Positions 1-42,379 of a stretch of DNA of 51,858 bases are shown here, piece by piece. The notes beneath the pieces are model-generated. The model was given only the letters and a program-made list of their open reading frames with translations, searched no databases and was not told the DNA's origin. The stretch comes from Cyanobacteria bacterium P01_E01_bin.6 (GTDB taxonomy: Bacteria > Cyanobacteriota > Cyanobacteriia > CAKZMO01), in NCBI GenBank assembly GCA_039194035.1, contig JBCCWF010000002.1, positions 1 through 51,858 of the forward strand, written 5' to 3'. How positions within the stretch are numbered: the first letter of the stretch is position 1; every line of letters begins with the position of its first letter. Made by a program: the position numbers and the translations under genes.

Positions 1-75
1 CCCAGATACCCCAGTCGTGTCCATATTTTGCAAGAGTTATAAGCAATACTAGATAACGTTAATAATCAGGATTTT

Positions 76-1494
76 GTGCTAGTCTATTTTGCGTGTCACC
101 GCGTTAGAAACCCGGAGGGAAAGCCAATGCTGATCGCTGCTGACACTCGAAAGAAACGGTTGGAAGAATCGGGCATTTCTATTCTTGATGATTTAGAGCC
201 ATTAATTCGGAACAGTCGAGCCCAACAGAAGGTGCTAATGTTGGATGCGTGTTTTATGGGACAGGGCCGAGGCCAGCAAGATCCCACAGAGTTCCTGAAG
301 AAGGTCAATGAACTTGCTAGTGGGTTTGAGGTTATTAGTGCTAGCAGCGAAGACCAAGAAGCCTTGGAGTCGTCAGGTCTAAACCATAGTATTTTTTGCC
401 ACTTTGTTCTCAAAGGATTGGCAGGTGAAGCTGAGATGGGCCAGAAGGTTGTGATGCTAAGTGCTCTTAAGCGTTATGTAATGGCAGAAATTGCCGAATA
501 TACTGTACGTCTGAGTATCGAACAATCTCCGCAAGGACGTTCTGACGGGAATCTTGGGGATTTCATGCTAGTAGATTACACCGCTCATTCTCTACCTAGT
601 CTTGAAAGTCTAAGCATTCCTGATATACAGCAGGTTTCTCCTCAAGATTTTCAAGCACGCAGTGAGACAAACGAACCCAAGTCGATTGGTACTAGGTTAA
701 TTGAATCGTTATGGACTCTAGACTATACCAATCAGGTTCAACTTTTTGAGTCACGTATTCCTAGAATGCGAAGGGGTGCAGTCGTTGCAGTACGAGCAGA
801 GAATGAATTGTTGCAATCATGGTTAACAAAGCGTTTATTGAAGAAACTCCCCATTCCAGTAAACAATTTTGTTGATGCCTGTGCTGTCATATCAGCGAGT
901 GATGTTTTGGATAATTTTGAGACATTCTGGGACGGGTTAGGTAAACACTTCAAGGTCAATACATCACTTAGATCGGTTGATAGAGATGCTTCTCAAATGA
1001 TCATCGAGACAATTATTAAAAAATATCAATCGGAAAACATCATTATTGTGATCAAAAATTGGCCTCGACGGTCCGGTCTACGCAAGAGAGTGCCAGAGTT
1101 ACTCTGTAGAATTCTGAATGATTTTTGGTATCCGTTGCAGACTGAAATGCGAGCTCAAAAAGTCGCGCCACTTCGCCAGCGGTTGGTTTTGTGTTTGATG
1201 GATGCTGGAAGAAAAACAAACAACTTACAGTCTCTGAAAAATGAAAACCCTAATTTAGTAGACCTTATTGATCTATCTCCTCTTAATATTACGAGTGATG
1301 AACTTACACAATGGGTCATAAGCAATCAATGGTTGCCAGACATCCGAAAAGACGACGATTATGTTGATGAGTTTTTAAAAGACCTCAGCGAGCCTGGGAT
1401 GCTAGAGAATGCTGAGGAGGTGATTAATGACATTTGTGATTTGTTCAAAGTAAATCTGGTGGATATTGAGGCAGAGTGGAGGTGGGCAGGATGA
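76..1494 (+). CDS. Caspase-like (peptidase C14/metacaspase-type) protein with ~300 aa C-terminal region of unknown function; N-terminal part of protease fold cut off by an in-frame TAA at 40-42
   Basis: The His strand LVYFACHR and Cys strand VLMLDACFMGQG match the caspase His-Cys dyad context (YFxGHG ... LDxCxSG). The stop overlaps the next start (ATGA at 1491-1494). Confidence 0.6.
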   Translation: MLVYFACHRVRNPEGKPMLIAADTRKKRLEESGISILDDLEPLIRNSRAQQKVLMLDACFMGQGRGQQDPTEFLKKVNELASGFEVISASSEDQEALESSGLNHSIFCHFVLKGLAGEAEMGQKVVMLSALKRYVMAEIAEYTVRLSIEQSPQGRSDGNLGDFMLVDYTAHSLPSLESLSIPDIQQVSPQDFQARSETNEPKSIGTRLIESLWTLDYTNQVQLFESRIPRMRRGAVVAVRAENELLQSWLTKRLLKKLPIPVNNFVDACAVISASDVLDNFETFWDGLGKHFKVNTSLRSVDRDASQMIIETIIKKYQSENIIIVIKNWPRRSGLRKRVPELLCRILNDFWYPLQTEMRAQKVAPLRQRLVLCLMDAGRKTNNLQSLKNENPNLVDLIDLSPLNITSDELTQWVISNQWLPDIRKDDDYVDEFLKDLSEPGMLENAEEVINDICDLFKVNLVDIEAEWRWAG

Positions 1495-2585
1495 CACAAG
1501 AAATTGATTACACCTACACCGGGGACTATCGGCCTCCCTTTGAAGATGGTAAAGAACCGCTGCGTGACCATAAAGGACGGGAGTATTTTCCATATCTGCC
1601 AGAGCCTGGGCTTAAAAAAGCGCTGAACTTGGCCATTGCCCTACAGCGTCCACTCCTCTTGGAAGGAGAGCCAGGATGTGGGAAAACCCGCCTTGCCGCT
1701 TCACTCGTGTATGAACTCACCTGCAAGCAGTTGGAAGGAAACCCTCCTGATTCCAAAACAAACGCAGAAGACTGGTGGAATTTTTATATTTGGAACGTTA
1801 CATCTACCAGTCGTGCTCAAGATGGGCTGTATACCTTTGATGCCGTTGGACGACTACGGGACGCACAGCTCATGGGGACCGATCCCGTTCGCCTGCAGCA
1901 ATATATGGGTAAGCTTGAAGCCGCAGCCTTGAAAAAACGGATGCAGGACAAGACCAAGTATCTAGATTTTGGTCCCTTGGGGCTTGCCCTAAAGGATCAA
2001 ACCCATCGTCCGGTGGTGCTTATTGATGAAATTGATAAAGCAGACAGTGACTTCCCGAATGATCTGCTGCTGCAATTAGACGAATTGCGATTTGATATTC
2101 CTGAACTAGGGGAAGGTGAAACGGTTCAGCCTCCAGAAGCCCGCAATAAACCGATTATTTTAATTACGAGTAATCGAGAAAAACCCCTATCTGAGGCGTT
2201 TTTGCGACGATGTCTTTACTACTATGTGCCGTTTCCAGGTGACGAGACGTTGCGGGAGATTATTAAGGCCCGATTTGGCGAAAAGTATATAGACAAAAAA
2301 GCAGTTGTCGATCGGGCTCTAGATAAATTCAATGACGTGTATCAGTTACTGAAGAATCAACCCGGTAGTCGTCCGCCTGGGACGAGTGAGGTTCTGGAGT
2401 TTGTGACAGCATTACTACAACACCAGCAGACAGACGACGACACGTTAACTGAGCTGGATAACTTATCCGGTGAATTACATTTACTAGGAACGCTGATTAA
2501 AACAAGCGCGGATCAAGAACGCTATATCGCGACATATCCACCTAAAGAGAAGGCCGACAATGAGGTGAGTGCATCAGATGGCTGA
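1491..2585 (+). CDS. MoxR-like AAA+ ATPase
   Basis: Walker A is LLLEGEPGCGKTRLA and Walker B is VVLIDEIDKAD, followed by ILITSNREKPLSEAFLRRC (sensor/Arg region). ATG 1491 is preceded by GGAGG at 1479-1483. The ORF-track start at 1476 is a GTG further upstream. Confidence 0.8.
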   Translation: MTQEIDYTYTGDYRPPFEDGKEPLRDHKGREYFPYLPEPGLKKALNLAIALQRPLLLEGEPGCGKTRLAASLVYELTCKQLEGNPPDSKTNAEDWWNFYIWNVTSTSRAQDGLYTFDAVGRLRDAQLMGTDPVRLQQYMGKLEAAALKKRMQDKTKYLDFGPLGLALKDQTHRPVVLIDEIDKADSDFPNDLLLQLDELRFDIPELGEGETVQPPEARNKPIILITSNREKPLSEAFLRRCLYYYVPFPGDETLREIIKARFGEKYIDKKAVVDRALDKFNDVYQLLKNQPGSRPPGTSEVLEFVTALLQHQQTDDDTLTELDNLSGELHLLGTLIKTSADQERYIATYPPKEKADNEVSASDG

Positions 2586-3696
2586 GCTATCATTTCCTTT
2601 TTTGGACTTATTTCAACAGCTTCAGGGGGCGGGGATGAAGCTATCACCGGAGCAGTATGATTTGTTGCGGCAGGCTATCGGCAAAGGGTTTGGGCAGGAA
2701 GACTGGAAGTGGGATGAGTTGCGGCAGGTCTGTCGAGTGTTGTGGGTAAAGCCTAGTCGGAACTATGACGGACAAACCTTTGAGCAAGTGTTTGATCAGT
2801 ATGTGCGGCAAAAGCAGGAGGAGATTCGAGCACAACTGACCGTCACTCAGCCGGAAGCGAAAACGGCACCTCCTAAACCAGCTCAGCCAATGCGACAGTG
2901 GCCTAGGGTGCCACCGCGCAAAAAGTCGGTGAGTCAGCCAGAGGCAACGACGGCAGAGGAAAAGGTACCCACCGCATTCAAAACGGGGGTGGAGGGCTTG
3001 CCTCAGATGGATGATCCTCGATTTAAGGTGACGCCCAGACAGATGCCGCTGCCCCAGCGCACTATTTTGGATAGCTGGCAGCTTTTGCGTCGTCCGCTGC
3101 GGGAAGGCATTCGCACTGAATTGGATTTGCCAGCAACGATCCGCTGCATTTCCCAGGTAGGCTATTTTAGCGACGTGGTGATGCGTCCGGTGAAGAATAA
3201 ACGGGCGGAGCTGATTGTGTTAGTGGATGATGGCAATGTGATGTTGCCGTATCAGCCTGCGTTGCAGCCGCTGGTTCGTGCCATTGAAACTCAGCAAATT
3301 ACTCCTGCTAAGTTGTATCGGTTTACTACTTACCCGGATGAGTATCTCTATGATTGGGTTCAGCCCTCCCATGCGATTCCGCTGGACCAGGTGCTGGCGC
3401 AGATGCATGCACGGCGGACGATTGTGCTGGTGTGGGGCGATGCAGGAGTCACTCAAACCAATCCGGCGGATGCCCATCGTAAGGGCTTGCTCGATTTTTT
3501 GAATCGGTTGTGTCCCTGCGTGCGGTCTTTGATTTGGTTAAACCCATTGCCTCCCTATCGCTGGACTGGAACGTTGGCGGAGGAGGTGGCCTATTGGTTG
3601 GATGGGCGTATGACCCATTTGAATGTGTTCCAGGTGTTGACATTGGCGAAAAAGCCAGCAGGAAATGATCGCATATTTTTGAGATCGCCTGGGTAG
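2578..3696 (+). CDS. vWA-like partner protein of the MoxR ATPase (tentative)
   Basis: The gene overlaps the MoxR gene by 8 nt (ATG 2578, MoxR stop 2583-2585). Strand-like motifs ELIVLVDDGNVM and RTIVLVWGDAG are consistent with a vWA/CoxE-type fold. A canonical DxSxS MIDAS motif is not evident. The MoxR-vWA pairing is a well-known gene neighbourhood. Confidence 0.45.
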   Translation: MAELSFPFLDLFQQLQGAGMKLSPEQYDLLRQAIGKGFGQEDWKWDELRQVCRVLWVKPSRNYDGQTFEQVFDQYVRQKQEEIRAQLTVTQPEAKTAPPKPAQPMRQWPRVPPRKKSVSQPEATTAEEKVPTAFKTGVEGLPQMDDPRFKVTPRQMPLPQRTILDSWQLLRRPLREGIRTELDLPATIRCISQVGYFSDVVMRPVKNKRAELIVLVDDGNVMLPYQPALQPLVRAIETQQITPAKLYRFTTYPDEYLYDWVQPSHAIPLDQVLAQMHARRTIVLVWGDAGVTQTNPADAHRKGLLDFLNRLCPCVRSLIWLNPLPPYRWTGTLAEEVAYWLDGRMTHLNVFQVLTLAKKPAGNDRIFLRSPG

Positions 3697-3707
3697 GGAG
3701 GTAGCAG

Positions 3708-5282
3708 ATGGGACCCTCGGCACGAGAGAGACGACAAGAAAGACGGCTGCGGCGAGACCCAACCGAACGGCGGATACGAGTGTTTGAGCAGCGCTATGGC
3801 CGGATGGCAACGAATTTGGCAGCCCATGCGGCGTTTCCGCTGACGCTGACGACGGATGTGATCTATTGTTTGCGGGAATCGTTTTTACCGGATTGTCCCT
3901 GGTATGCAGCGGCGGATGTGTTGCTGTCAGGATTGTGTACTCCGGTGGGCTATGACTTGTATGAGATGGAAGCGGCAACTCGTCGCTACCTGTTGCGGTA
4001 CTTGCGGGATCAGTTTGGAGATGGGCAAGTTGAGGCGGTGGCTGACTTTATGGCGGCCTATTTACGCCATCGAGTGTTGGGGCTAAAGGATAATCGAGCC
4101 TTGATGTTGGGGGAAAAGCCCCAGTGGACGGCGTTGGCTTGTTTGCAGCCGGGGAAAGCCCGTGACGAAATCTATCAGGCGCTACAACACTTAGCCCGTC
4201 AGCAGACGTTAGACCAACAAGACCGATTTCGATTGGCTTCATTGGTGGAAAGCTATGGTGATTTTCTCGCGGACCAGGGATATCAGCATTTCATGGTGGA
4301 ATGGGCCGATAAGTTCGCCGAGGAAGAGCCGATTGATGCTCAGGCCGAGATGGTGGAGCAGCTTCAAAATGCTGGTTTCTCGGTGCGGTGGGTGGAGTTT
4401 GAGGTGGCGACGGTAGCCTTTGGGGTGGAGCAAGCCCCGATGGAAGAGAGTGAGCTATACACCGTTAATATTGAGACGGTCACGGTGAATGAGCAGGGAG
4501 AGGAAATTGCCAGAGAACCGCATACTGTCTCCTATTTTGAGGAACTGTTGGGAGACCCTATCACCCCACTGCGGCTGGTAGCAATTCCCAGTGGGGAATT
4601 TATGATGGGGTCTGGAGAAGAGGACTCTGACAAATACGGGGATGAAACACCTCAGCATTTGGTAAAAGTCAAGCCGTTTTTTATTAGCCAGTATCCTGTG
4701 ACTCAGGCCCAGTGGAAAGCTGTGGCAGCCATGCCGACGCCCACAGAAGATTTGGAGGAAGACCTCAAACCCGAGCCATCCAGATTTTCGGGTGATGAGC
4801 GCCCGGTAGAGCAGGTGTCGTGGCATGAGGCGGTGGAGTTTTGTGCTCGGTTGTCGAAGCATACAGGACGCATCTATCGGTTGCCAACGGAGGCAGAGTG
4901 GGAATATGCCTGTCGAGCAGATACGACCACGCCCTATTATTTTGGGCCGAAGATAACAGAAGCTTGGGTTAACTACAACGTTGGTGAAACTACTTCTGTA
5001 GGAAAATTTCCTCCTAATGCCTTTGGCCTGTATGACATGCACGGAAATGTGTGTGAATGGTGTGCCGATCACTGGCATGGCAATTATGAGGAGGACGGAG
5101 GACCACCAACAGACGGAAGTGCTTGGCTGACAGAGGATTCAGACGCTAGGCGAGTGAACCGCGGCGGCTCCTGGTACCCCTATCCAAGGCTTTGCCGTTC
5201 CGCGTGTCGCGACGATGACCTCCCCGGCGACCACTACGACGATATTGGTTTTCGAGTTGTATGCGAGGCCCGAGGACTCTGA
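3708..5282 (+). CDS. DGR target protein 1: N-terminal domain of unknown function plus C-terminal FGE-sulfatase (SUMF1-like, C-type-lectin fold) domain carrying VR1
   Basis: FGE-sulfatase motifs are present: LVAIPSGEFMMGS, YPVTQAQW, VSWHEAVEFCARLS, YRLPTEAEWEYACRA, GLYDMHGNVCEWCADHW, RGGSW, IGFRVV. GGGAGG lies upstream of ATG 3708. The last 41 codons equal VR1. Confidence 0.85.
   Translation: MGPSARERRQERRLRRDPTERRIRVFEQRYGRMATNLAAHAAFPLTLTTDVIYCLRESFLPDCPWYAAADVLLSGLCTPVGYDLYEMEAATRRYLLRYLRDQFGDGQVEAVADFMAAYLRHRVLGLKDNRALMLGEKPQWTALACLQPGKARDEIYQALQHLARQQTLDQQDRFRLASLVESYGDFLADQGYQHFMVEWADKFAEEEPIDAQAEMVEQLQNAGFSVRWVEFEVATVAFGVEQAPMEESELYTVNIETVTVNEQGEEIAREPHTVSYFEELLGDPITPLRLVAIPSGEFMMGSGEEDSDKYGDETPQHLVKVKPFFISQYPVTQAQWKAVAAMPTPTEDLEEDLKPEPSRFSGDERPVEQVSWHEAVEFCARLSKHTGRIYRLPTEAEWEYACRADTTTPYYFGPKITEAWVNYNVGETTSVGKFPPNAFGLYDMHGNVCEWCADHWHGNYEEDGGPPTDGSAWLTEDSDARRVNRGGSWYPYPRLCRSACRDDDLPGDHYDDIGFRVVCEARGL
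5157..5280 (+). repeat. DGR variable repeat VR1 (124 nt)
   Basis: Hand alignment to TR 6894-7017 gives 15 differences, all at TR adenines, plus one non-A difference at the 3' end (G 5275 vs C 7012). Confidence 0.9.
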
Positions 5283-5319
5283 GTATCTCTCTTTTCTTTT
5301 TCCCTCTTTCCCTCTTCTT

Positions 5320-5334
5320 TCGCGCTTCGCGCGA
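5320..5334 (+). promoter_or_regulatory. GC hairpin downstream of VR1 (TCGCGC-TTC-GCGCGA), candidate DGR retrohoming hairpin/cruciform
   Basis: It has a 6-bp perfect stem and a 3-nt loop. An equivalent hairpin sits at the same offset after VR2 (9133-9147). Confidence 0.55.
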
Positions 5335-5427
5335 TCAAAATTTTTTCAGAGTTTCCTTATCACACTCCACTTGATTATTGATGCTGAATCTTTGGTAGAG
5401 TTGGAACCCACAAAATTTCAGAGTGCT

Positions 5428-5772
5428 ATGAACGAAGAACTACCGATTATCCAGAAAACCTATGACCTGATTAAATGGGCCGTTCCGATTATTGATCGAC
5501 TGCCCCGCAGCCATCGCTTTACCTTGGGCGATCGCATTGTGAATGAACTCTACAACTTGCTCGATCAACTGATCACAGTCCGATATGCCCGATCTGGGAA
5601 ACTGACAGCCCTACAGGCATTGAATACTCGGCTCCAGGTGTTGCGCTACCAGTGTCGGCTATTGCTGGATCTTGAGCTGATTTCGGTAAAACGCTACGAG
5701 TTTATGCATCGACAAATCAATGGAATTGGCATGGAGCTGGGAGGCTGGATTAAGCAGCAAACCCCCTCATGA
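5428..5772 (+). CDS. avd: DGR accessory variability determinant (Avd; four-helix-bundle / 23S rRNA IVS-like protein)
   Basis: The 114-aa product [37 protein letters not shown]... resembles the four-helix-bundle family. Its stop overlaps the RT start (ATGA at 5769-5772). The ORF-track start at 5215 reads through VR1 and is rejected. Confidence 0.8.
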
Positions 5773-6854
5773 AACGCTACGGATATCTCTGGTCTCAGGT
5801 CACTGATTTTCAAAATTTGTGGCAAGCGGCCAGGCAAGCTCAGCGCAGTAAACGCTATCGGCCCGGCGTCTTAGCCTTTAACCATGAGCTAGAGCAAAAC
5901 TTGCTGCAATTGCAAGAGGAGTTGCACGCTAAAACCTATCAGCCGGGCGACTATCACACCTTTGAAATCACCGACCCTAAACCTCGGCTGATTTCGGCAG
6001 CTCCTTACCGAGACCGAGTGGTGCATCATGCCTTGTGCAATGTGATTATGCCCCTGATAGAGCGATCCTTTATTGACGACTCCTATGCCAATCAAGTCGG
6101 GAAGGGAACCCATCGGGCACTGAAACGGGCAATCCACTTCATTCGTTCGAGTGATTATGTCTTGCAATGTGATCTCCAAAAATATTTTCCAAGTATTGAT
6201 CACACGATTCTCAAACGACAGCTCCGACACTGGCTGAAGTGTCCGGATACCTTATGGCTGATCGACACCATTATCAACAACAGCAATGACCAGCCCCGAG
6301 AACTGACTTATTTTCCTGGCGACACCTTGCTGACTCCTCTAGAACGCCGCGCTGGATTACCCATTGGTAATTTGACCAGTCAGTTTTTTGCCAATGTCTA
6401 TCTGAATGGGCTCGATCATTTTGTTAAAGAAACGCTGCACATTGGCAGATACCTGAGGTATGTAGATGATTTTTTGCTATTCAGCAACGACCCCTACCAG
6501 CTCAGCGATGCTCGGCAGGCCATTGAAGACCATGTGACGGGGTTACGATTGCGACTGCATCCCGCCAAAACTCAACTGTTTGAAACCCAACATGGCGTTA
6601 ATTTCGTGGGATTCCGGATGATTCCAGAGGATCGGATGTGCCCCCGCGAGGTTGTCGTGAGGGTACGAAACGACAATTTACAGCGTGCCCGGAGACGATG
6701 TAAACAGTTACAACGTGAGTATGCAAACGGCACCATTGGGTTGAAGCCTCTGGTACAGCGACTACAGAGTTGGGAAGCTCACCTCAAGCATGGCGATACC
6801 CATCGGTTACGGCGGCGGATTTTTGATGAGTTGGTGTTTCGGCACGATGAGTGA
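5769..6854 (+). CDS. DGR reverse transcriptase
   Basis: RT motifs are present: [24 protein letters not shown], the DGR-typical [17 protein letters not shown], and YVDD in [10 protein letters not shown]. It is flanked by avd and TR. Confidence 0.9.
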
Positions 6855-6893
6855 GCCAGATTGCGTGTACCCTAAGGGGTGGGTCAGGCAGCC

Positions 6894-7017
6894 AAACGCG
6901 GCGGCTCCTGGAACAACAATCCAAGGAATTGCCGTTCCGCGTGTCGCAACAATAACAACCCCGGCGACCACAACAACAATATTGGTTTTCGAGTTGTATG
7001 CGAGGCCCGAGCACTCT
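6894..7017 (+). repeat. DGR template repeat (TR), non-coding template RNA region
   Basis: The 124-nt segment starts 40 nt after the RT stop. It contains 11 AAY codons in the VR reading frame (KRGGSWNNNPRNCRSACRNNNNPGDHNNNIGFRVVCEARAL). It is homologous to VR1 and VR2, with differences only at A positions. Confidence 0.9.
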
Positions 7018-7364
7018 TCAGTGAGTGGTGCTGTCAATACGACCGGATCACAGTGCCAGAGTTGATAGGTGGGAATCTATCAAGCGTGCCCCGTGAAGAG
7101 TCCAGACCTGGTCCAGTGATGCACCCGCATCCAAAAAGCAACCAGAGCCAGAGGGCTTAGTAGGTTTTTCTCGAACCGTCGTCTGGCTCATCCTAAAAGC
7201 AGGTATATGACGTATTAATTTAGCAATATTTATTATAGAAACGCTGATCTACTTGAAAAATGAAGCGGCAGAACCGTAGCCTGATAGGTTCACTCGAACA
7301 CTAACGGGTAACACACAACTTTCTTCTTCTGGTTCTACTTTCGGTTCTATTTGGGAAACGGCTA

Positions 7365-9092
7365 ATGACATCCTCATCTCCCAGTTTTAATCAATCTTCC
7401 TTTAATGCTTCAAAGCAGGATTCTCAGATAACCCTTAATGCCGTTATTGTCACTTCCCTAGCCGTTGAATCTCAAGCCGTTCGTTCATTTTTAACCAATG
7501 TTCACGAGGTCACTCATCCTACTGGAACCGTTTATGAGCGGGGTATCTTTGAGGCAGACTCATACACATGGGATGTTTACATTGTCGAAATCGAGCTAGG
7601 TAATATTATTGACGCAGCGGAAATAGAGCGTTCTCTTTCAGTGTCCAAGCCCCACGTCATCCTATTCGTAGGTCTTGCTATTGGTATCAGAAACGTCAAG
7701 ATTGGAGATGTAGTAGTCGCACCAAAGATCTATCGCTATATATTAGATACACGATCAGAAGAACCTGAATTGCGTCCTCCGCTTGGTGCAGAATCTCATG
7801 TGTTGTCAGAATATGCCAAAGCGGAAGCACAAAAAAATGAATGGTTGTCTCGATTACCAAAACCGACTGCTCCTCCCCCAGATGTCATTATTGCGCCGCT
7901 CGTTTCTAGCGAAAAAGTTGTGGCTTCGATGCAGGATCAGAACTATGAGTTTTTACGATCTCATTTTAATGACGCAGTAGCTGTAGATCTAGAAGGATAT
8001 AAATTTCTGGAGAAGATTCCTTCTATCTTTCCCTTTGTCATGGTCATTCGGGGGATTTCTGATCTCATTGATGACGTTGAGCTTAGCCAATACTACCCTG
8101 AGGGGTTAAGTAAAGAAATAGCAGCTCGACATGCTAGTGCTTTTGCAATTCACATACTCTCTAAGTTTGCTAATAGTAAGGATGAACCAGATTTTCAGGC
8201 TGAGTTTGGTGAGCAACAAGATACAGTTGAGACGTTTGGAGTTATTCAACAGTCTCAGCGATCGCAATGCTTTACCGACCCTGAGATTCACGCCAAACTT
8301 GGAATTCAGATTGATCTGATGTTGATTCCCAGAGGCACCTTTGTAATGGGGTCTCCAGAGAATGAACTCGGTCGATATGATGATGAAGATTCACTCCATG
8401 AGGTGACCGTCTCACCCTTTTTGATGGGGCGCTATCCGGTAACGCAAGCCCAATGGAGGGCGGTGGCCAACCGAGAAGACCTGAAAGTTGAGCAAGACCT
8501 TGATCCTGACCCCAGCAAAGTTAAGGGGGAAGATCATCCAGTTGAACGGGTGTCCTGGTATGAAGCGATGGAGTTTTGTCAACGGCTTTCAAGGTTAACG
8601 GGCCACCACTACCGCTTACCTACTGAAGCCGAATGGGAATATGCCTGCCGAGCCGGGACAACAACTCCGTTTCATTTTGGAGAGACCATCACCACTAATT
8701 TGGCGAACTATCGGGGAACTGATAATGAAAGTGAGCCTGAAAACTATCCTGGCAACTATGGAGATGGCCCCAAAGGTGACTATCGGGAAACAACGACTCC
8801 AGTCAATCAGTTTCATCCTCTGGCGAATGCATTTGGCCTATGCGATATGCATGGCAATGTATGGGAGTGGTGTGCCGATCACTGGCATCGCAATTATGAG
8901 GATGATGGGGGTGCGCCAATCGATGGGAATGCTTGGTTGACAGAGGATTCAGATGCTAGTCGAGTGCTACGCGGCGGCTCCTGGTACGACAATCCAAGGG
9001 ATTGCCGTTCCGCGTGTCGCAACGGTCTCAACCCCGGCGACCGCAGCTTCGATATTGGTTTTCGAGTTGTATGCGAGGCCCGAGGACTCTGA
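7365..9092 (+). CDS. DGR target protein 2: N-terminal nucleoside phosphorylase-like (PNP_UDP-type) domain fused to C-terminal FGE-sulfatase/C-type-lectin-fold domain carrying VR2
   Basis: The N-terminus has LNAVIVTSLAVESQAV, HVILFVGLAIGI, GDVVVAPKIYRY, AVAVDLEGYKF and VIRGISDLIDD, matching the phosphorylase-superfamily pattern (GIAGG, GDVVV, EMEG, RGISD) with substitutions. The C-terminus has LIPRGTFVMGS, YPVTQAQW, YRLPTEAEWEYACRAG, HGNVWEWCADHW, RGGSW and IGFRVV. Confidence 0.8.
   Translation: MTSSSPSFNQSSFNASKQDSQITLNAVIVTSLAVESQAVRSFLTNVHEVTHPTGTVYERGIFEADSYTWDVYIVEIELGNIIDAAEIERSLSVSKPHVILFVGLAIGIRNVKIGDVVVAPKIYRYILDTRSEEPELRPPLGAESHVLSEYAKAEAQKNEWLSRLPKPTAPPPDVIIAPLVSSEKVVASMQDQNYEFLRSHFNDAVAVDLEGYKFLEKIPSIFPFVMVIRGISDLIDDVELSQYYPEGLSKEIAARHASAFAIHILSKFANSKDEPDFQAEFGEQQDTVETFGVIQQSQRSQCFTDPEIHAKLGIQIDLMLIPRGTFVMGSPENELGRYDDEDSLHEVTVSPFLMGRYPVTQAQWRAVANREDLKVEQDLDPDPSKVKGEDHPVERVSWYEAMEFCQRLSRLTGHHYRLPTEAEWEYACRAGTTTPFHFGETITTNLANYRGTDNESEPENYPGNYGDGPKGDYRETTTPVNQFHPLANAFGLCDMHGNVWEWCADHWHRNYEDDGGAPIDGNAWLTEDSDASRVLRGGSWYDNPRDCRSACRNGLNPGDRSFDIGFRVVCEARGL
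8967..9090 (+). repeat. DGR variable repeat VR2 (124 nt)
   Basis: Hand alignment to TR gives 14 differences, all at TR adenines, plus the same single 3' non-A difference (G 9085 vs C 7012). It differs from VR1 at many of the same codons. Confidence 0.9.
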
Positions 9093-9132
9093 GTATCCCT
9101 CTTCTCTCTTTTTTCCCTCTTTCTCTCTTCAT

Positions 9133-9147
9133 TCGCGCTTTGCGCGA
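9133..9147 (+). promoter_or_regulatory. GC hairpin downstream of VR2 (TCGCGC-TTT-GCGCGA)
   Basis: It has a 6-bp perfect stem and a 3-nt loop, and is paralogous to 5320-5334. Confidence 0.55.
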
Positions 9148-9310
9148 TCAATTTTTTTTTTATAATCCTCTCCAAATCACTAGAGTTGTTTTTGAGGAAG
9201 CGATCGCACTTAAAATCTACCTTGCTCAGAGTTTGGTCAGAGGTTGTGGCCGAAACCATAACTATTTGTCTCTGCAGGGTTGAGGCGATCGCCCCTTAAC
9301 TCCAGAAAGC

Positions 9311-11680: not shown

Positions 11681-14203
11681 ATGTTATCCATTTCAAAAAT
11701 GGGGAAGGGAAGTGCCCTTTATTATGCGAAGCTAGCCCAAAATCAAGGAGAATTTGATGCATCACAACCGGGTGAGCCACCAGGCGAATGGTTGGGGCGG
11801 GGGGCTGCAACCCTTGGATTGACAGGCACTGTAAATCAAGCAGATTTTCTCGCACTGTTTGATGGCTTTTCAACGGATGGGCAAGCATTTCTAGCCAATG
11901 CAGGTCGAGACAATCATGTGCCGGGATGGGACTTGACGTTTTCATCAGTGAAGTCTGTGGGTGGTCTGTTGTGGGCAGTAGCTCCTGCTCATATCAAGGC
12001 AACACTTGAGTCCTGTCATCATCGGGCAGTGAAGAGGGCGATCGCCTATCTCGAAGAACAGGCGGTTAATCGAAATGGAGAGCAATGCAATTTAGTGATT
12101 GCAGCGTTTCAACATGGAAGTAACCGCAATCTCGATCCAGGGCTGCATACCCACTGTCTAGTGCTGAATCTCGCCGTAGGGCAGATGGCTGGAGAGAAAC
12201 CTCGCCCTCTTTACTCAAAACATCTCTACAAACACAAGCGAGCCGCTGGAGCACTCTACCGCAGTGAGTTTTCGTATTTGCTTCAACAGGAGTTGGGACT
12301 CTCGTTAGAGCGAGTGCGCAGTTGGTTTGAGCTGAAGGGATTTTCGAGAGAACGCGGACGCTATCAGGAACTCATGAATCACTGGTCATCTCGACGACAG
12401 GAGATCGAGACGCAAGAACCTGTGAATGCCCGTCATGCTCAGTTGTTGGCCTATCAAACTCGGCAAGAAAAAGGTGTTGTCCCACCGCGCCATGAACTCT
12501 TTGCCCAGTGGCAAGATACTGCTGCGGAGTATGGATTGACCCAGCGACAGGCCATCCGCTTAGTAAAGCCTCCAAAGCAGCCCTTAACGCTCACACAAAA
12601 GTGGGCAGAATGGCGAACTATTCGAGAAGCTGCTACTGCCGTGATACGGCATCAAAGTCACTTTACCCATCGTGAATTAGTGCAGGCTGTTGCAGAAGCT
12701 TCACAAGCTCGGACGATTTCAGCAGACCGGGTAATGGAACTGACGGAATGGTATCTCACCTCTCGGTACGTGATGCGTCTCGGCATCATTGACGGACAGA
12801 AGCGCTATGCCAATAAACGACTCTATCGCTTAGAGCAGAAACTATTGAATCAAGCCCAAACCCTTAAGCAGTCGAGAGGATATCGAGTCCGGACAAAGAC
12901 AGTCACTCAGGCCGTGATGCGTCACGGCATTAGACCGGAACAGGAGCAGGCCATCGTCACGGTGACGCAACCGTCTCGACTCTCGGTCTTATCCGGTCTT
13001 ACCGGAACGGGGAAGACCCATACCGTGAAGGTGCTCCGGGACATTTACCAGGCCAACGGGCATGAGGTGTTGGGCGTAGCAGCATCCCGACGCGGGATGG
13101 AAAAGCTGCACGAGAAAACGGAACTCAGTCATCAACGCTGGTGGGAACCCTTCGTGGAACACCCCTCAGAACAAACAATGAGTGTGCATCGTTTGTTTAC
13201 TGCCTTGGATCGAGCGCAGGAAAGCCAGTGGCAATATGGCGCTCGATCAGTCGTGCGATCGCCCCTTTCGAATCGAACCGTCGTGATCGTCGATGATGCA
13301 CAGCGCATCAATACCGCCCAGATGAATCGTCTTATCACGGAAGTCAATCAGGCTGCTGCCAAACTAATTCTTTGCGGGGATTTGAAGCAGCAACAAAGTT
13401 ATGAACACCGGGGCGCATTTGCGGCTATTGCACAGCGATTTGGCCATATCCAACTTGAGCACGTGGTACGCCAGGAAGAAGAACAGGCACAAACCATAGT
13501 GCAGCAGATTTCAGAAGGAGAGTCCCAAGCAGTGGTTCGTCGATTAGTAGAACAGGGACAACTTATCTTTGTTGAACACAAAGAAGAGGCCATGCTCCAG
13601 ACCGTTCAACAATGGAAACCGCAGGGTATTCGGCACCCACGACAGCATCTGATGATTACCGAGACCCGAGAAGATGCAAAAACGTTGAATCGGTTAGCGC
13701 AACAAGCTCGGGTTGAATCCGGTGCGTTGAGTCAGGTTGCCGTTAAAGTGAGGGGAGACCATTTTTACAAGGGCGATCGCCTTTTGCTGGCCGAATCGTC
13801 TCATACCTACGGCGTAACAAAAGGAACGTTCGGAACACTGAAGCATCTGGATTCAGTCACTCGCATGGCTGTGGTGAAGCTAGACTCAGGGCAGACTCGG
13901 TTCATCAACACCCGACTGTATCGAGGGTTGGAGTTGGGATATGCAGTGACGACAACAACCGCACGGGACATTGAAGTGAATTATGCTTATGTCATGGCCC
14001 ATGGCGATGGTCGGGAGGCGGCGTTAGTTCAACTCTCGCGAGCACAGAAGCAGACTCAGGTGATTGCCTATGGTCATGGGGTTGAGCATGACCAGACGCA
14101 GAACTTAGCCGATCAACTGAAATACTCAAAGCTTCAGGAATTTGCTGTGATTGCACATGAGCGTGGGAAAGAACAGGCGCAGGAGCAGGGGCGATCGCAC
14201 TAA
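11681..14203 (+). CDS. MobF-family conjugative relaxase (TrwC/TraI-like relaxase domain plus C-terminal P-loop helicase-like domain)
   Basis: The N-terminus MLSISKMGKGSALYYAKL, WDLTFSSVKSV and the histidine motif HGSNRNLDPGLHTHCLVLN are typical of the TrwC relaxase domain. The central P-loop is LSGLTGTGKTH with VVIVDDAQ. Confidence 0.85.
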   Translation: MLSISKMGKGSALYYAKLAQNQGEFDASQPGEPPGEWLGRGAATLGLTGTVNQADFLALFDGFSTDGQAFLANAGRDNHVPGWDLTFSSVKSVGGLLWAVAPAHIKATLESCHHRAVKRAIAYLEEQAVNRNGEQCNLVIAAFQHGSNRNLDPGLHTHCLVLNLAVGQMAGEKPRPLYSKHLYKHKRAAGALYRSEFSYLLQQELGLSLERVRSWFELKGFSRERGRYQELMNHWSSRRQEIETQEPVNARHAQLLAYQTRQEKGVVPPRHELFAQWQDTAAEYGLTQRQAIRLVKPPKQPLTLTQKWAEWRTIREAATAVIRHQSHFTHRELVQAVAEASQARTISADRVMELTEWYLTSRYVMRLGIIDGQKRYANKRLYRLEQKLLNQAQTLKQSRGYRVRTKTVTQAVMRHGIRPEQEQAIVTVTQPSRLSVLSGLTGTGKTHTVKVLRDIYQANGHEVLGVAASRRGMEKLHEKTELSHQRWWEPFVEHPSEQTMSVHRLFTALDRAQESQWQYGARSVVRSPLSNRTVVIVDDAQRINTAQMNRLITEVNQAAAKLILCGDLKQQQSYEHRGAFAAIAQRFGHIQLEHVVRQEEEQAQTIVQQISEGESQAVVRRLVEQGQLIFVEHKEEAMLQTVQQWKPQGIRHPRQHLMITETREDAKTLNRLAQQARVESGALSQVAVKVRGDHFYKGDRLLLAESSHTYGVTKGTFGTLKHLDSVTRMAVVKLDSGQTRFINTRLYRGLELGYAVTTTTARDIEVNYAYVMAHGDGREAALVQLSRAQKQTQVIAYGHGVEHDQTQNLADQLKYSKLQEFAVIAHERGKEQAQEQGRSH

Positions 14204-15346: not shown

Positions 15347-17053
15347 TTACTGAAGCTGCTGTTGAATTACCTTCAAATTCCTTCGACACTGCACCGTTAA
15401 TGGATGGTCGTTGCCCAGAGAGGCTTCACGAATAGCTAGCGCCTCCTCATACAGAGATTGAGCATCTTTTGAGCGTCCTTGAAGATGATGCACCGACGCC
15501 AAATTATTGAGACAGGTCGCAACATGCGGATGCTGGTTCCCCAATAACTGTTGCTTTAATACCAGAGCCTGCTGGAAATAAGGCTGTGCATCAGCATAGC
15601 GAGTTTGCATGTAATACAGCGTCGCTAAATTATTCAGGCAAGTAGCCACATCAGGATGGTTTTCTCCCACTAGAGCCTTGGTTAGCTCTAACGCATCGCT
15701 GAATAAGGTCTCTGCTTCCTCAAACCGAGATTGGTTGTGATACACCAATCCCAGATTGTTCATACAGGTGGCAACTTCAGGATGATGGTTGCCGTGAATT
15801 TCTTGACTTATGGCTAATGCTTGCTCTAGCAAGGGTTCCGCTTCATCAAATCGGTTCTGGCTGTAATAGAGTAACCCAAGCCCATTAAGGCATGCTGCCA
15901 CATGGGGATGTCTGTCACCCACGAGCGATCGCTCCACCCTCAGAGCATCCTTAAAGCAATACTCCGCATCGGCATAGCGTCCTAGCTCACGATAGAGTGC
16001 AGCTAAATTGCTCAAGGTGAGTGCGACATCAGGGTGAGCCTCTCCAAAAATCTCCCGTCGCACATTGTAGACCGTGAGCAACGTCTGTTCTTGCTCTGGG
16101 TAACGGGCTTGAGTGTAATAAAACGCAGCTAAATTATTTAAGCTAATCAACACATGGGGGTGACGCTCTCCAAACAATTTTTTTCGCATGTTCAGTGCTG
16201 TGTTGAAGTGCTCTTCAGCCTCAGCATACCGCCCTTGTTGCTGATAAACCAATGCTAGATTGTTCAGTACTGTTGCGACATCCCCGTGCGCATCCCCTGA
16301 TAGTTGTCGGGTTTGCTCCAGGCTCTCCAAAAATAGAGCTTCAGCCTCAGCATATTGCCCCTGATCTCGATATAAAAGGGCTAGACCATTGAGGCTAACG
16401 GTAATGTGCTGATGGGGTGCATTTAATGTATGCTGTCGTAACCCTAAAGCCTTACGAAGACAGCTTTCAGCTTCCTGATATCGTCCTTGATTGTGGTATA
16501 GCACACCTAAACTATAAAGGCATGTCGCAATGTCTGGATGATGTTGTCCTAGAAGGTTTTGAGTCGTTGCTAATGCCTGTAGGAGTAATGGTTCTGCTTG
16601 AGCATATTGCCCCAGTTTTCGGTACAGTGCAGCTAGGTTAATTTGACTACTAATGACATCGGCGTGATCTGTTCCAAAGCGTTCAAGTACAGCAGCTAAA
16701 GCCGATCTCCACCACTCTTCTGCTTTTAGATAAGCGCCTTGACCCTCATGAAAATAGGCCAGCCCTAAAAAAGGGCTGAACAAATCTTCGTCCTCCAACA
16801 AGTGCAACTTTTGAGTCGCCACCATACTGAGCTGAGGAATATCAAACGCAAACTCCTCTAAATCTGTTTGATTTGGATTAGATGGAATCTCACTTGCCAT
16901 TTGAGCACAGGTTTTTGCCAGTGCCTTGTCAAGTTGGTTGGCCTGGTTGCTTGAGGAAGTCATCGAAGGAATTTTGTTATGTGAGCTATCGTCAATCGGC
17001 ACTACTGTATTTTGCATATTCTTCATCTGTGGTTTTGCCTCTGAAGAATTCAC
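15347..17053 (-). CDS. TPR-repeat protein (kinesin-light-chain type 42-aa TPRs); probably the C-terminal half of a split NB-ARC-TPR STAND protein
   Basis: There are about 10 repeats of the form NNLAxLYxxQGRYxEAExLxxxALxIxxxxLGxxHPxVAxxL. The 5' end overlaps the NB-ARC ORF by 62 nt in another frame. An alternative non-overlapping ATG is at 16963. Confidence 0.75.
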   Translation of the reverse strand: MNSSEAKPQMKNMQNTVVPIDDSSHNKIPSMTSSSNQANQLDKALAKTCAQMASEIPSNPNQTDLEEFAFDIPQLSMVATQKLHLLEDEDLFSPFLGLAYFHEGQGAYLKAEEWWRSALAAVLERFGTDHADVISSQINLAALYRKLGQYAQAEPLLLQALATTQNLLGQHHPDIATCLYSLGVLYHNQGRYQEAESCLRKALGLRQHTLNAPHQHITVSLNGLALLYRDQGQYAEAEALFLESLEQTRQLSGDAHGDVATVLNNLALVYQQQGRYAEAEEHFNTALNMRKKLFGERHPHVLISLNNLAAFYYTQARYPEQEQTLLTVYNVRREIFGEAHPDVALTLSNLAALYRELGRYADAEYCFKDALRVERSLVGDRHPHVAACLNGLGLLYYSQNRFDEAEPLLEQALAISQEIHGNHHPEVATCMNNLGLVYHNQSRFEEAETLFSDALELTKALVGENHPDVATCLNNLATLYYMQTRYADAQPYFQQALVLKQQLLGNQHPHVATCLNNLASVHHLQGRSKDAQSLYEEALAIREASLGNDHPLTVQCRRNLKVIQQQLQ

Positions 17054-18602
17054 GAATGAGAGGGTGCATGCGATAGATTCGATTATCGAATGGCTTGAGC
17101 AAACTGTACGTGATTAAAAGATTCCGAGAGCGCTGTAGTCCCTCTGGGTCATACGCGACCTCATTGGGATCTTGCTCTACCATCGTTTGATGCATTCCAT
17201 CCACCATTCGCCAGCGGATCGGTCCTGCTTCAAACCGTCCCAGCATTTTAGCTAAGAGTTGAGTCGCTTCATTCAGTTTCTCCCAGGTCAAATCGAATGC
17301 AGCTCCTAACCCTCGACGGGCAGTGAATGTCCAAGCCGGATCATTTTGATAATCACTCCCCATTGCCTCATGCTCCATCACCTCACGATTCTCCACTCGT
17401 TGATGTAGTTGCCCCAATAATTCTGCAATCGAGAGGTTCGAATCGAGCGCTAAATAAGTCCCAGTTAATTCCACGGCTAAAGGCAAATCTCCCAAAAACT
17501 CACACAAGTTATTTCCCTCATTACTGTTATGGATATCCGGTTTCTTAGATAAGAATGCTAGTAAATCTAGCGAATCGTCACGATAAAGAACGTCAACTGG
17601 AAACCACTCTACAGCAGGACCAAGCTGTACCCGTGTCGTAAGGAGAATCCGAAATCGACCGTCAGTTGGCAAAAATTCCGGGTAAATATCACTATATTTG
17701 TCAATATCGTCGTAAACCAGCAATACGTTGCCCTGTGGCCAGTGTGCCCAACAATACTGGAGTCTTTCATGAGTATTGCTTGAGGTCTCGGGTACGTCCA
17801 TTCCAAGCTTGACCCTCGCAAACGAGATAATCTGGGTAGCAAGAGTAGCTTCATTAGGGGCATCCCGTCCATAAAGCCAGCAAACCCCACCAGGGTAATT
17901 CTGAATATATCGCTTAGCGTATTGAATGGATATTTCTGTTTTGCCGATCCCTCCCATACCTGTGAGTGCAACCTGTTGATGGTGTCTTAGTGCCTTATGT
18001 AAATCAGTGAGGAGTTTCTCTCGACCAACAAAATTAGTAGCACCGCTTCTTGGAATAAATGCTGGGATGGAAGTTTGTTCACTACTCTTTTGCAATGTTT
18101 GTACTTTTAATTGCCATAGCAAATCGAGTTGAGATAAATTCTCCCTTTTTCTGGCTTGCTGGACGGCTTGCTCATCAGTGGGTTCAACCTTTACCCACAG
18201 GGTCAACCCAAATGTCCAATTGCCTGCCGTACGGCCTTTTTTGCTTTGTCTACGATCGTCTAAAATTCCTAGGAATCCGTCAAAGTAGTCTCGCAAACTA
18301 CTCCGAATAGTATCTTCCTGAAATGAAACGTTATATTTTTCTAGATATTTGGGAGATTCAAGGAGAGTTGACAAACACTTAACTGTTGTTTCTACATAAA
18401 GGCTGGGCCGTCCGTCAGAGGTATCATTTTCCCATCGTACTAAAAAACTAGATCGGGCTGGGTCGAGCAACTCATCAAGAATAACCTCCAACAAACATAT
18501 ACACCGGTTTTTCGGAACATCATCATAGGAACGTCGCATGGGTACTGATAGACTTTTCGGGAGGGTGGGTATATAGACAAGATATTGCTGCCAATCTAGC
18601 AA
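16992..18602 (-). CDS. STAND P-loop NTPase (NB-ARC-like) with ~190-aa N-terminal domain of unknown function
   Basis: Walker A is VALTGMGGIGKTEISIQYA and Walker B is VLLVYDDIDK, followed by RILLTTR and GDLPLAVEL (NB-ARC-like motifs). The start is either TTG 18602 or ATG 18539. Confidence 0.8.
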   Translation of the reverse strand: MLDWQQYLVYIPTLPKSLSVPMRRSYDDVPKNRCICLLEVILDELLDPARSSFLVRWENDTSDGRPSLYVETTVKCLSTLLESPKYLEKYNVSFQEDTIRSSLRDYFDGFLGILDDRRQSKKGRTAGNWTFGLTLWVKVEPTDEQAVQQARKRENLSQLDLLWQLKVQTLQKSSEQTSIPAFIPRSGATNFVGREKLLTDLHKALRHHQQVALTGMGGIGKTEISIQYAKRYIQNYPGGVCWLYGRDAPNEATLATQIISFARVKLGMDVPETSSNTHERLQYCWAHWPQGNVLLVYDDIDKYSDIYPEFLPTDGRFRILLTTRVQLGPAVEWFPVDVLYRDDSLDLLAFLSKKPDIHNSNEGNNLCEFLGDLPLAVELTGTYLALDSNLSIAELLGQLHQRVENREVMEHEAMGSDYQNDPAWTFTARRGLGAAFDLTWEKLNEATQLLAKMLGRFEAGPIRWRMVDGMHQTMVEQDPNEVAYDPEGLQRSRNLLITYSLLKPFDNRIYRMHPLIREFFRGKTTDEEYAKYSSAD

Positions 18603-19756: not shown

Positions 19757-20533
19757 ATGAAGAAATCTCTTGAAGTCCGAAAGCTGAATAAAGCTGAACG
19801 ACAGCGACTGCGAATCATCGTGGTACTGAGCGACAAAGGAGGGGTCGGCAAGTCGGTTTTTGCCCGGTTGCTGTTGCAATATTTTCTAGACTGTAATCGT
19901 CCAGTCATCGGATGCGACTGTGATCGCTCGAATCAAAGCCTCCTAGACTACTATCAACGTATGGTTGAGGTTATCTTAGCCTTCTTCAGTGAAGACCCCA
20001 AAAAGGCATGGAAAGCTGACTTCATTCTGGAAGCTGTTTTAGAGCACCTCAAAGATATCATTGTTGACACCCCAGCCCAGGTGTTCAGGAGCGTGACCGC
20101 ATACCTGCATCAGGGTGGCTTAAAGGCAGCCCAGCAACAAGGCGTTGAATACCTTTTATTTATTGTCATCGCGGATCGCTATTCACTCGAACAGTTTATT
20201 GACCTCGTTCACGAATTTGGTGATGACATTCCATTCCTTATTGCATTGAATAAGGGCTGTTGTGATGACTTCGCTTTTGTCGAAGAGAGTGATGAGTTTC
20301 AGTCCATCATCAAATCTTTGAAGATTCCAGTCATCACCATTCCTGAGCTGCCTTATCGAGAACGAGAAATCATCGACCAATATCGGTTGTCATTTTCTGA
20401 AGCTCTACAATCCACTGATTTAACCATTGTGGGCAGGCAACGGGTTGCAGATTTCTTATCCGAATGCTTTGAACAACTGGATGACCTAAATCAGCTTAAG
20501 GAGGGTGATAATGGCCTATCGACAAACGCCTGA
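19757..20533 (+). CDS. ParA/MinD-superfamily P-loop ATPase (partition or TraL-like)
   Basis: It has the deviant Walker A VVLSDKGGVGKSVFA, and GGAGGA lies upstream of the ATG. Confidence 0.7.
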   Translation: MKKSLEVRKLNKAERQRLRIIVVLSDKGGVGKSVFARLLLQYFLDCNRPVIGCDCDRSNQSLLDYYQRMVEVILAFFSEDPKKAWKADFILEAVLEHLKDIIVDTPAQVFRSVTAYLHQGGLKAAQQQGVEYLLFIVIADRYSLEQFIDLVHEFGDDIPFLIALNKGCCDDFAFVEESDEFQSIIKSLKIPVITIPELPYREREIIDQYRLSFSEALQSTDLTIVGRQRVADFLSECFEQLDDLNQLKEGDNGLSTNA

Positions 20534-21037: not shown

Positions 21038-21508
21038 ATGAATTATTTTTTACGGGCTGTAGTCATCACAGTTCTCATTGTCCCATATTGGTGGTGGCTG
21101 TATCCCTTATTATTCGATGTCGCAACGTTATTACCTGCGGATAATGGCCTCATCTATGGCCTCTATCCGCTAGGGTTCCTCGCGTCCCCCTTCTTTCGAG
21201 CCATCTTATTTTTCTTCCTCACTCGATGGAAGCTCCATTTTCTCTCAGAAGGATGGTCTGCTGAGGTAAGAGTTTTACGACTTGAAGGCGTCACCGTCCT
21301 AGCGTCCTTGCTCAGGTGGATTGTTTTAGCCGTTGTTCTGGTGTTCATCCCACCGGCGATATCAATTCTGATGTTGCACCTATTAACTCAGTACACAATG
21401 GTTCCTCAATGGCTTTCAAATCTTACCTCATGGATTGTTCTATTCAAGTTTCTTCAAATGATGTGGGTGTTTCCATACAGCCACATTGCACGGATTCGAT
21501 CGCTGTAA
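21038..21508 (+). CDS. Polytopic membrane protein (hypothetical)
   Basis: Several hydrophobic segments are present. The start is taken at ATG 21038 (MNYFLRAVVITVLIV). Confidence 0.45.
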   Translation: MNYFLRAVVITVLIVPYWWWLYPLLFDVATLLPADNGLIYGLYPLGFLASPFFRAILFFFLTRWKLHFLSEGWSAEVRVLRLEGVTVLASLLRWIVLAVVLVFIPPAISILMLHLLTQYTMVPQWLSNLTSWIVLFKFLQMMWVFPYSHIARIRSL

Positions 21509-21525
21509 ATCTTAGGAAATTCATC

Positions 21526-25422: not shown

Positions 25423-25539
25423 TCCTGGGCTCGTCACCAATCCTATACCGGGCTATACCGGTATCAATGACACCCAGTGACCAGGGCGTATCCAGGTCTG
25501 TATATCGGAGTTATTGTCGTTATTCCTTACAGAATTTCC

Positions 25540-30120: not shown

Positions 30121-30582
30121 ATACTTACAGATACCCTTAACGAATGGTCATCTCATTCTAGCCACGACTTACTATAGGTTCCACAACTTCGAGTAGTTGC
30201 AATAGGCAAAGGGTTAGAAGACCCTAGCGCATTTGGAAGTATGAAATTGGGTCCAACCGTTTCTCTAGTCTGCGCCTTTCGCTTAACGGTTGGATATCTT
30301 GGATCCCCAAAAAACTTCTGAAAAATTTAGTGATTGAAGTCGCTTGAGGGCTATATGAGAAACTCAACTTGCTTTTCTAAAAAGTGAGGATTAGAACCAT
30401 CCCTATTACTGGACTGCTTTGATTGGTTGTGGTGACTGGCGTTTTTTTCAAATGAACAGATAGAGGAAACATTGTTAGACTTAATAAATCAGTAGGATTC
30501 TGCCCATAAGGCTCGCTGCAAGAGCTAGAATAACTTTGTCTTCTTGGCTCAGCTAGCCGCTTACACCCAGTTATTGAAGCTT

Positions 30583-36317: not shown

Positions 36318-36433
36318 TCTTTTTTGCCATGGAGATGTTAGATGCCATCCTAAGCTAAACCTGCGTTACTGGTATCCAAACAGTCCCTAATTTTACTGAT
36401 TCCTCTTATACCCATTGATTGCCAGCTACTAAT

Positions 36434-42258: not shown

Positions 42259-42379
42259 GCACAACAAATTAGCATCGTCTGAAGCGAAAGAAATCGCGCC
42301 ATAATGCTCGAGGTAGGGGCAAGCATAGATTCGTCTACTCTGTTCCACTAAACATATTTACCCTCAGTACGTGAAGGTT

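Follow-up and report, generated by a model that had tools for sequence, protein, structure and literature searches.

What does a diversity-generating retroelement (DGR) do next to a caspase-like gene and a MoxR ATPase? This question is raised by contig JBCCWF010000002.1 of Cyanobacteria bacterium P01_E01_bin.6 (assembly GCA_039194035.1). The contig is 51,858 nt (51.9 kb) long, and the whole of it is referred to as the window. Four genes at its left end are followed by the DGR. The original prediction regarded the product of the fourth gene as the variable arm of a caspase/MoxR/vWA conflict operon. We found that positions 1-9150 probably constitute an inactive STAND (iSTAND)-type MoxR–vWA ternary conflict system joined to its own DGR. 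Domain content, gene fission, conserved gene order and the DGR signature directly support this assignment.

For this cassette, open reading frames (ORFs) were called on the forward strand of positions 1-9100, and all of its features lie on that strand. Pfam and NCBIfam assigned gene 1 (1-1494) a caspase domain (Peptidase_C14, about 1-580) and an inactive STAND domain (about 694-1485). Gene 2 (1491-2585) encodes a MoxR-clade AAA+ ATPase, and gene 3 (2578-3696) an N-terminal helical region followed by a CoxE-type vWA domain. Gene 4 (3708-5282) is DGR target 1. It comprises a helical connector (about 3756-4313), a beta extension and an FGE-sulfatase (FGS)/C-type-lectin fold (about 4473-5270). The tight packing that had been predicted was exact at each junction: ATGA at 1491-1494, an 8-nt overlap at 2578-2585 and an 11-nt gap at 3697-3707. 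A scan for terminators inside the cassette found no strong internal one. The four genes had also been said to run straight into avd and the reverse transcriptase (RT) gene, but a spacer of 145 nt (5283-5427) with a GC hairpin separates target 1 from avd. Both targets, the template repeat (TR) and all other parts of the system fit within 9 kb.

The caspase-type His/Cys protein of the original prediction was recognizable in gene 1. Peptidase_C14 matched at E = 1.5e-4, just above the Pfam cut-off, and the NCBIfam family caspase_w_EACC1 matched at E = 1e-20. The catalytic dyad was kept, with the His in ACH and the Cys in LDACF. The ORF itself was incomplete, because the contig start truncates it. 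Full-length relatives have 533-542 aa and consist of C14 plus iSTAND, and about 60 N-terminal residues are missing in comparison with them. The C-terminal part had been thought to match nothing. Searches with hidden Markov models (HMMs) assigned about 270 aa of it to iSTAND (PF19995, E = 4e-9, 37.5 bits against a cut-off of 24). Its translation has no GK[ST] P-loop, and the Walker B position reads IIIVIKNW. No VMAP family was found in gene 1 by Pfam at E ≤ 0.01, and iSTAND was the only match to a third component.

The MoxR-like ATPase and its vWA-like partner were likewise recovered. Gene 2 matched AAA_5 in Pfam (E = 5e-12), and its motifs are intact in the translation (Walker A GEPGCGKT, Walker B VVLIDEID). 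As judged by eye, it lacks the N- and C-terminal extension motifs of the VMAP type. Its relatives are annotated as MoxR family ATPases and are found on cyanobacterial plasmids. Gene 3 matched VWA_CoxE (E = 1.2e-7, 31.9 bits, cut-off 26.4). In its metal-ion-dependent adhesion site (MIDAS), both Asp residues are kept (LVDD and WGDAG), and the serines of DxSxS are replaced (DDGNV). Such serine loss is shared by part of the family.

Gene 4 had been described as a protein whose only recognizable domain is the diversified FGE-sulfatase fold. Pfam and NCBIfam confirmed the fold at aa 290-518, and its end is diversified. The N-terminus, however, is not without matches. NCBIfam model NF041121 is colinear over two genes, with gene 3 covering model positions 29-183 and the N-terminus of gene 4 covering positions 352-470. 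Because one model maps across both, genes 3 and 4 look like one ancestral protein. Single fused ORFs, 907 and 962 aa long, turned up in a family scan at one locus of Aetokthonos hydrillicola and one of Limnofasciculus baicalensis. Both genes aligned colinearly to these ORFs, gene 3 over aa 8-338 and gene 4 over aa 29-519, and the aligned part of gene 3 corresponded to aa 6-329 of the 907-aa homologue. Only 2 of 73 surveyed loci retained the fused vWA-connector form. All full-length close homologues of gene 4 have 489-510 aa, so the split form is conserved. Judged by these alignments, genes 3 and 4 together represent one vWA component divided by gene fission, and most cyanobacteria of the family share the split. 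In the window, the FGS payload is thus a polypeptide separate from the vWA protein, behind the 11-nt gap and with its own Shine-Dalgarno sequence (GGGAGG, 6 nt before the ATG at 3708). A recent frameshift in a fused gene was considered and rejected: every close full-length homologue of gene 4 is some 500 aa long, and the gene starts from an ATG and a Shine-Dalgarno sequence of its own.

The DGR signature is clear. An RT and Avd are encoded, a TR is paired with variable repeats (VRs) that differ from it at adenines, and the VRs lie at the 3′ ends of targets with the C-type-lectin fold. The avd gene (5428-5772) matched bAvd (E = 8e-21) and NF033474 (132 bits, cut-off 80). The RT gene (5769-6854; RVT_1, YVDD motif) has a start that overlaps the avd stop codon, and both are intact ORFs. 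The TR (about 6894-7017) contains 35 adenines and 11 AAY codons, which give approximately 10^17 possible protein variants. VR1 (5159-5280) forms the last 40 or so codons of target 1. VR2 (8969-9090) belongs to target 2 (7365-9092), in which a nucleoside-phosphorylase/MTA-nucleosidase-like N-terminus precedes the FGE-sulfatase fold. Both VRs keep the reading frame. VR1 departed from the TR at 15 adenines (14 in codon position 1 or 2) and VR2 at 14. Adenines thus accounted for 15/16 and 14/15 of the differences from the TR. The one other difference, near the 3′ boundary, was a C at 7012 in the TR and a G in both VRs (5275 and 9085). A non-adenine difference at the 3′ end is expected for the IMH versus IMH* (initiation of mutagenic homing) distinction that gives retrohoming its direction.

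Near-identical hairpins with a 6-bp GC stem and a 3-nt loop follow each VR at about 40 nt. The first (TCGCGC-TTC-GCGCGA, 5320-5334) lies 38 nt past the stop codon of target 1, and the second (TCGCGC-TTT-GCGCGA, 9133-9147) is followed by a T-run. They resemble the cruciform element known to assist DGR retrohoming. About 40 nt flanking the hairpins are also conserved between the two targets. As a separate observation, the N-terminus of target 2 (7365-8330) matched NCBIfam PRK05584 (E = 4e-11) and a PADLOC "PN-superfamily effector" (E = 7e-6). With a phosphorylase-like domain and a diversified lectin of its own in one chain, target 2 may combine sensor and effector in a self-contained unit.

We surveyed related loci with a profile of the N-terminal domain of the target. 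Relatives occurred in 262 species-level genomes. We retained 80 loci, all cyanobacterial and mostly from filamentous species, and annotated them with iterated HMMs built from the window proteins. Counts were taken only over loci with enough flanking DNA. The iSTAND-MoxR-vWA genes lay directly upstream of the target on the same strand in 54 of 57 loci, and in the annotated loci the connector-payload gene always came after the vWA gene. How often a DGR co-occurs had been left to such a survey; an RT was present within 6 kb in 20 of 59 loci, about a third. Caspase domains stood at the iSTAND N-terminus in 13 of 54 loci, and the caspase-less proteins are the majority of the family (41/54). Among 58 iSTAND proteins of the surveyed loci scanned with Pfam, 52 matched iSTAND. 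Their N-terminal domains were caspase (13), trypsin (3), HTH_26 (3), TIR (1), CHAT (1) and EAD (7 in all: four EAD4 and one each of EAD1, EAD7 and EAD8). This mix is as expected for domains in a putative effector or adaptor position. The same four-gene cassette is carried by the conjugative (MOBF) plasmid pREC3 of Acaryochloris marina.

These features place the cassette in a published class, so the four-part module is not an unrecognized one, as had been supposed. Kaur, Burroughs, Iyer and Aravind (eLife 2020, PMC7159879) defined the iSTAND-type MoxR–vWA ternary conflict systems by prediction from genomes. In their iSTAND class, the MoxR protein lacks VMAP-type extensions, the vWA protein has a CoxE-type N-terminal helical domain, and the iSTAND N-terminus bears a caspase, trypsin, TIR or EAD domain (PMC7159879). 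FGS is the commonest vWA-linked payload, the systems are concentrated in cyanobacteria, and linkage to DGRs occurs especially there (PMC7159879). The window has an inactive STAND as its third component, MoxR immediately 3′ of it, and a CoxE-type vWA protein with both MIDAS Asp residues. It shares with the published systems the gene order iSTAND, MoxR, vWA and the DGR link. A caspase domain at the iSTAND N-terminus, interrupted in this copy, and an FGS payload, on a polypeptide of its own, are also present. The published vWA component is a single fused chain; here two genes make it up, one for a vWA protein and the other for a connector-FGS protein. The window copy has also lost the MIDAS serines, and its caspase ORF is interrupted. 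Unlike VMAP-type ternary systems, it has no protein with a VMAP-C domain as its third component.

The novelty of a hypervariable sensor had also been overstated. Doré et al. (PNAS 2024, PMC10907252) proposed that a DGR-diversified lectin senses antigen and signals through MoxR to a peptidase, and reported that most clade 5E cyanobacterial DGRs share a MoxR/vWA/peptidase context. As in their loci (Thiohalocapsa PB-PSB1 and clade 5E cyanobacteria), the window has a C-type-lectin target of a DGR beside MoxR, vWA and peptidase genes. The third component is clearly iSTAND in the window, whereas the loci of Doré et al. were described mostly as VMAP-type or as without a recognizable third component. 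Co-expression and hypermutation data already exist for Nostoc punctiforme PCC 73102 (mBio 2025, PMC12691664). Its locus has the CHAT gene Npun_F4885, MoxR (F4887), VWA (F4888), targets F4889 and F4890, and RT (F4892). CHAT, MoxR, VWA and target 2 are co-expressed, and both VRs have low-level adenine-specific variation (PMC12691664). Compared by gene arrangement only, the two loci are alike: a protease-family gene, MoxR, a separate vWA gene, two FGS targets and avd-RT stand on one strand. In N. punctiforme both targets precede avd-RT, whereas in the window avd, RT and TR lie between target 1 and target 2. The N. punctiforme locus was described as a chromosomal region, and the window locus is on a contig bearing a relaxase and a type IV coupling protein.

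The retroelement itself resembles the DGRs of Bordetella phage BPP-1 (Mtd) and Treponema (TvpA). They share Avd, RT, TR and a C-terminal VR in a C-type-lectin/FGE fold, as well as adenine-specific mutagenesis, AAY codons and a GC hairpin after the VR. In contrast to Mtd and TvpA, the diversified protein of the window is neither a phage tail fibre nor a surface lipoprotein but belongs, as a subunit that looks cytoplasmic, to an ATPase/protease module. The locus is a member of a published class that has a closely similar, studied counterpart in N. punctiforme. What it adds is modest, namely a split vWA component, a connector of wide occurrence, a place on a mobile element and an apparently disabled caspase.

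The N-terminal 215 aa or so of gene 4 form a conserved helical module, which is fused directly behind the vWA domain in two distant relatives. The helical domain in this region, about 190 aa, has no Pfam family. We searched aa 22-215 of the target against 1.8 billion representative proteins (E ≤ 1e-3) and found the connector in at least 1335 representative clusters. Its position was mostly N-terminal, or about 400 aa in for the fused vWA forms. Domain partners were counted in a sample of 73 proteins, which gave 132 Pfam families in all. FGE-sulfatase was the most frequent (18/73), followed by TPR (8), VWA_CoxE (6, N-terminal to the connector), CHAT (5), pentapeptide repeats (5), GUN4 (4), receiver (4), kinase (3) and NB-ARC (3); Macro and others also occurred. 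A docking module would be expected to show just this pattern, a head that stays constant and a tail that varies, right behind the vWA gene or domain, and the pattern supports the earlier suggestion that the N-terminal region of the target may be an adaptor surface. We tentatively suggest, with less than even confidence, that the connector is a dedicated docking module that plugs exchangeable payload polypeptides into a constant iSTAND–MoxR–vWA chassis. If so, lectin sensors, CHAT, kinases, GUN4 and receivers would be among the payloads, and the cyanobacterial systems would amount to machines of four subunits, with a receptor that can detach and that the DGR can reprogram. In bacteria, this would come closest to a receptor chain that stands apart from its signaling core. 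A related cassette on a plasmid of Tolypothrix sp. PCC 7712 (NZ_CP063787, 7971-12325) runs from MoxR through a 709-aa vWA protein to a connector-GUN4 protein. With GUN4 in place of the lectin, it illustrates payload swapping behind the same connector.

The rest of the window encodes a TrwC-type relaxase (11681-14203), ParA (19757-20533), a TrwB/TraG type IV coupling protein (21316-23400), a tyrosine integrase (47541-48533), RadC and a DDE transposase. The contig thus looks like a conjugative plasmid or an element resembling an integrative and conjugative element, rich in conflict genes. On the reverse strand, an EAD4–NB-ARC ORF (15347-17053) and a TPR-repeat ORF (16992-18602) overlap by 62 nt, and a frameshift or an assembly error seems to have divided what is otherwise a single STAND NTPase (EAD4–NB-ARC–TPR). 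Four paralogous TPR–CHAT (caspase-like) genes were found at 30544-33894, 36419-39604, 40243-42258 and 42371-42985 plus 44555-47452. They share DNA blocks that are 65-79% identical, and a DDE_5 transposase of the opposite strand (42998-44461) apparently breaks up one of them. A PglZ fragment of 382 aa (28617-29765, reverse strand) matched positions 424-764 of the 910-position PADLOC PglZ model (E = 7e-114). The match makes it a BREX-type PglZ domain that either stands alone or is truncated, and the ORFs scanned on the contig included no further BREX gene. A pentapeptide-repeat protein is encoded at 25477-26304, and the homologous cassettes on the Acaryochloris and Tolypothrix plasmids (loci L005 and L006 of our survey) likewise have large pentapeptide-repeat proteins a few kb upstream.

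How might such a system work? Judging from the protein families, gene 1 would be an iSTAND scaffold with an N-terminal caspase effector, and gene 2 a MoxR AAA+ motor. Genes 3 and 4 would form the vWA component, the payload of which is the FGS/C-type-lectin fold with VR1 rewritten from the TR by Avd and RT. The connector would dock the variable lectin subunit onto the vWA/MoxR/iSTAND complex. Binding of a ligand by the lectin surface would trigger ATP-driven remodeling by MoxR, which in turn would activate the caspase borne by iSTAND. A cell that recognized the invader would undergo proteolysis, stop growing or die, a putative abortive-infection function. The conserved gene order and the mobile, conflict-rich contig agree with the original prediction that the target is the variable arm of a conflict operon, although the caspase is interrupted in this copy.

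Several points weigh against this reading. Gene 1 has an in-frame TAA at 40-42, within the caspase domain, and the first start after it is GTG at 76. The residue after the catalytic His is Arg, while it was Gly or Ala in all 17 relatives compared. Because the MIDAS serines are lost in gene 3, its peptide capture may be non-canonical, and the classical metal-dependent form might not apply. PADLOC-DB 2.0 gave no match for genes 1, 3 and 4, and only weak generic AAA matches for gene 2. Since an RT was within 6 kb in only a third of the loci, the cassette would seem also to work, or to persist, without a local DGR. The AlphaFold2 model of the connector had a pLDDT of 68.5 and was confident only for aa 21-120 or so. 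Foldseek found nothing below E = 0.1 for it in the PDB; the model resembled winged-helix domains (FOXN1, MarR) weakly and partially, which might be a lead but is not a result. As for the direction of signaling, the sequence would suit a lectin that senses as well as a lectin that is released as an effector. In the literature, we found no paper that tested the function of such a system.

The first two of these points bear on whether the window copy works at all. It might be decaying and non-functional, with gene 1 a caspase-iSTAND pseudogene and the cassette a relic on a mobile element. We consider this less probable than a working cassette. Homology to seven relatives spans the stop on both sides (PRYPSRVHILQEL*AILDNV pairs with KRYPSRTNILAELKSLLDKV), and together with the Gly/Ala-to-Arg change it speaks for decay. 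Other conflict genes on the contig also look broken, namely the TPR–CHAT gene split by the DDE transposase and the overlapping EAD4–NB-ARC and TPR ORFs. Against this, the TAA is only 40 nt from a contig end, and contig ends commonly carry assembly errors. We looked for a second copy of the locus DNA as a check and did not find one. An exact lookup of the MoxR protein gave none. A lookup of the RT gave only one 1.7-kb Logan contig with the same RT, so the left flank of the window could not be extended; sequencing run SRR22824306 holds the same RT. A megablast of positions 1-9200 against PLSDB gave no match, and metagenome contigs, scanned for exact 32-mers and for the gene 1 protein, yielded nothing either. 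[quoted passage not shown] The protease arm may nevertheless be dead in this copy, given the stop codon and the Arg. An interrupted caspase frame in this contig possibly means that the protease output is lost. Most iSTAND proteins of the family have no caspase, so an N-terminally shortened product could still be a scaffold; the interrupted frame might thus leave an iSTAND-only scaffold like that of the caspase-less relatives.

Decay and the next alternative are not mutually exclusive. In the model of Kaur et al., the main rival, the logic is opposite: the iSTAND/caspase protein senses the invader, MoxR remodels the complex, and the caspase cleaves or frees the vWA-linked payload. The DGR lectin would then be a binding effector or a decoy that neutralizes invader molecules, not a sensor. 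We regard this as unlikely, at odds of perhaps one in a handful. It has the weight of the paper that defined the class (PMC7159879), and connector payloads include many enzymatic, effector-like domains (CHAT, kinase, Macro). A payload that is already a separate polypeptide would need no cleavage for its release. Against the model, the split form leaves the protease nothing to release, a hypervariable, non-enzymatic lectin surface suits recognition better than execution, and iSTAND N-termini bear classical executioners (caspase, trypsin, TIR) or EAD adaptors. Because of the split architecture and the executioner-type domains on iSTAND, the sequences favor a lectin that would act as a sensor over one that would be a released binder.

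A role outside immunity, with the DGR target and its partners adjusting a regulatory or signal-transduction pathway to environmental or developmental cues, is rather improbable. Such a role was proposed for cyanobacterial DGR targets by Vallota-Eastman et al. (2020), and receiver, kinase and GUN4 domains are among the connector payloads. However, the locus lies on a conjugative-type element near NB-ARC/EAD4, CHAT and PglZ genes, the TIR, caspase and EAD domains of iSTAND N-termini are typical of conflict systems, and anticipatory hypervariation fits a moving biological target. A housekeeping MoxR–vWA chaperone pair (of the CoxD/CoxE, NorQ/NorD, CbbQ/CbbO or RavA/ViaA type) with a DGR adjacent by chance, the role that the original prediction had named as its refutation, has in its favor the CoxE-type vWA match and the MoxR-like ATPase, but we rejected it on gene context as very unlikely indeed: unlike those pairs, this one has no client enzyme gene (CO dehydrogenase, NOR, Rubisco or other) among the ORFs of at least 180 aa in the window, or in the related loci, and iSTAND and the lectin target stand on either side of the pair in 54/57 loci, with the connector-payload gene always after the vWA gene.

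An iSTAND-type MoxR–vWA system with its own DGR and a lectin sensor therefore remains the reading that we prefer. The locus adds little conceptually. It supplies a compact example on a mobile element, and evidence for a split vWA component as the normal state in this cyanobacterial family. It is a warning, too, that individual copies can have a lost or broken protease arm. A defined and widespread connector domain could guide pull-down or complex-prediction work. DGR-linked MoxR–vWA systems are a leading candidate for adaptive immunity by receptor diversification in multicellular bacteria.

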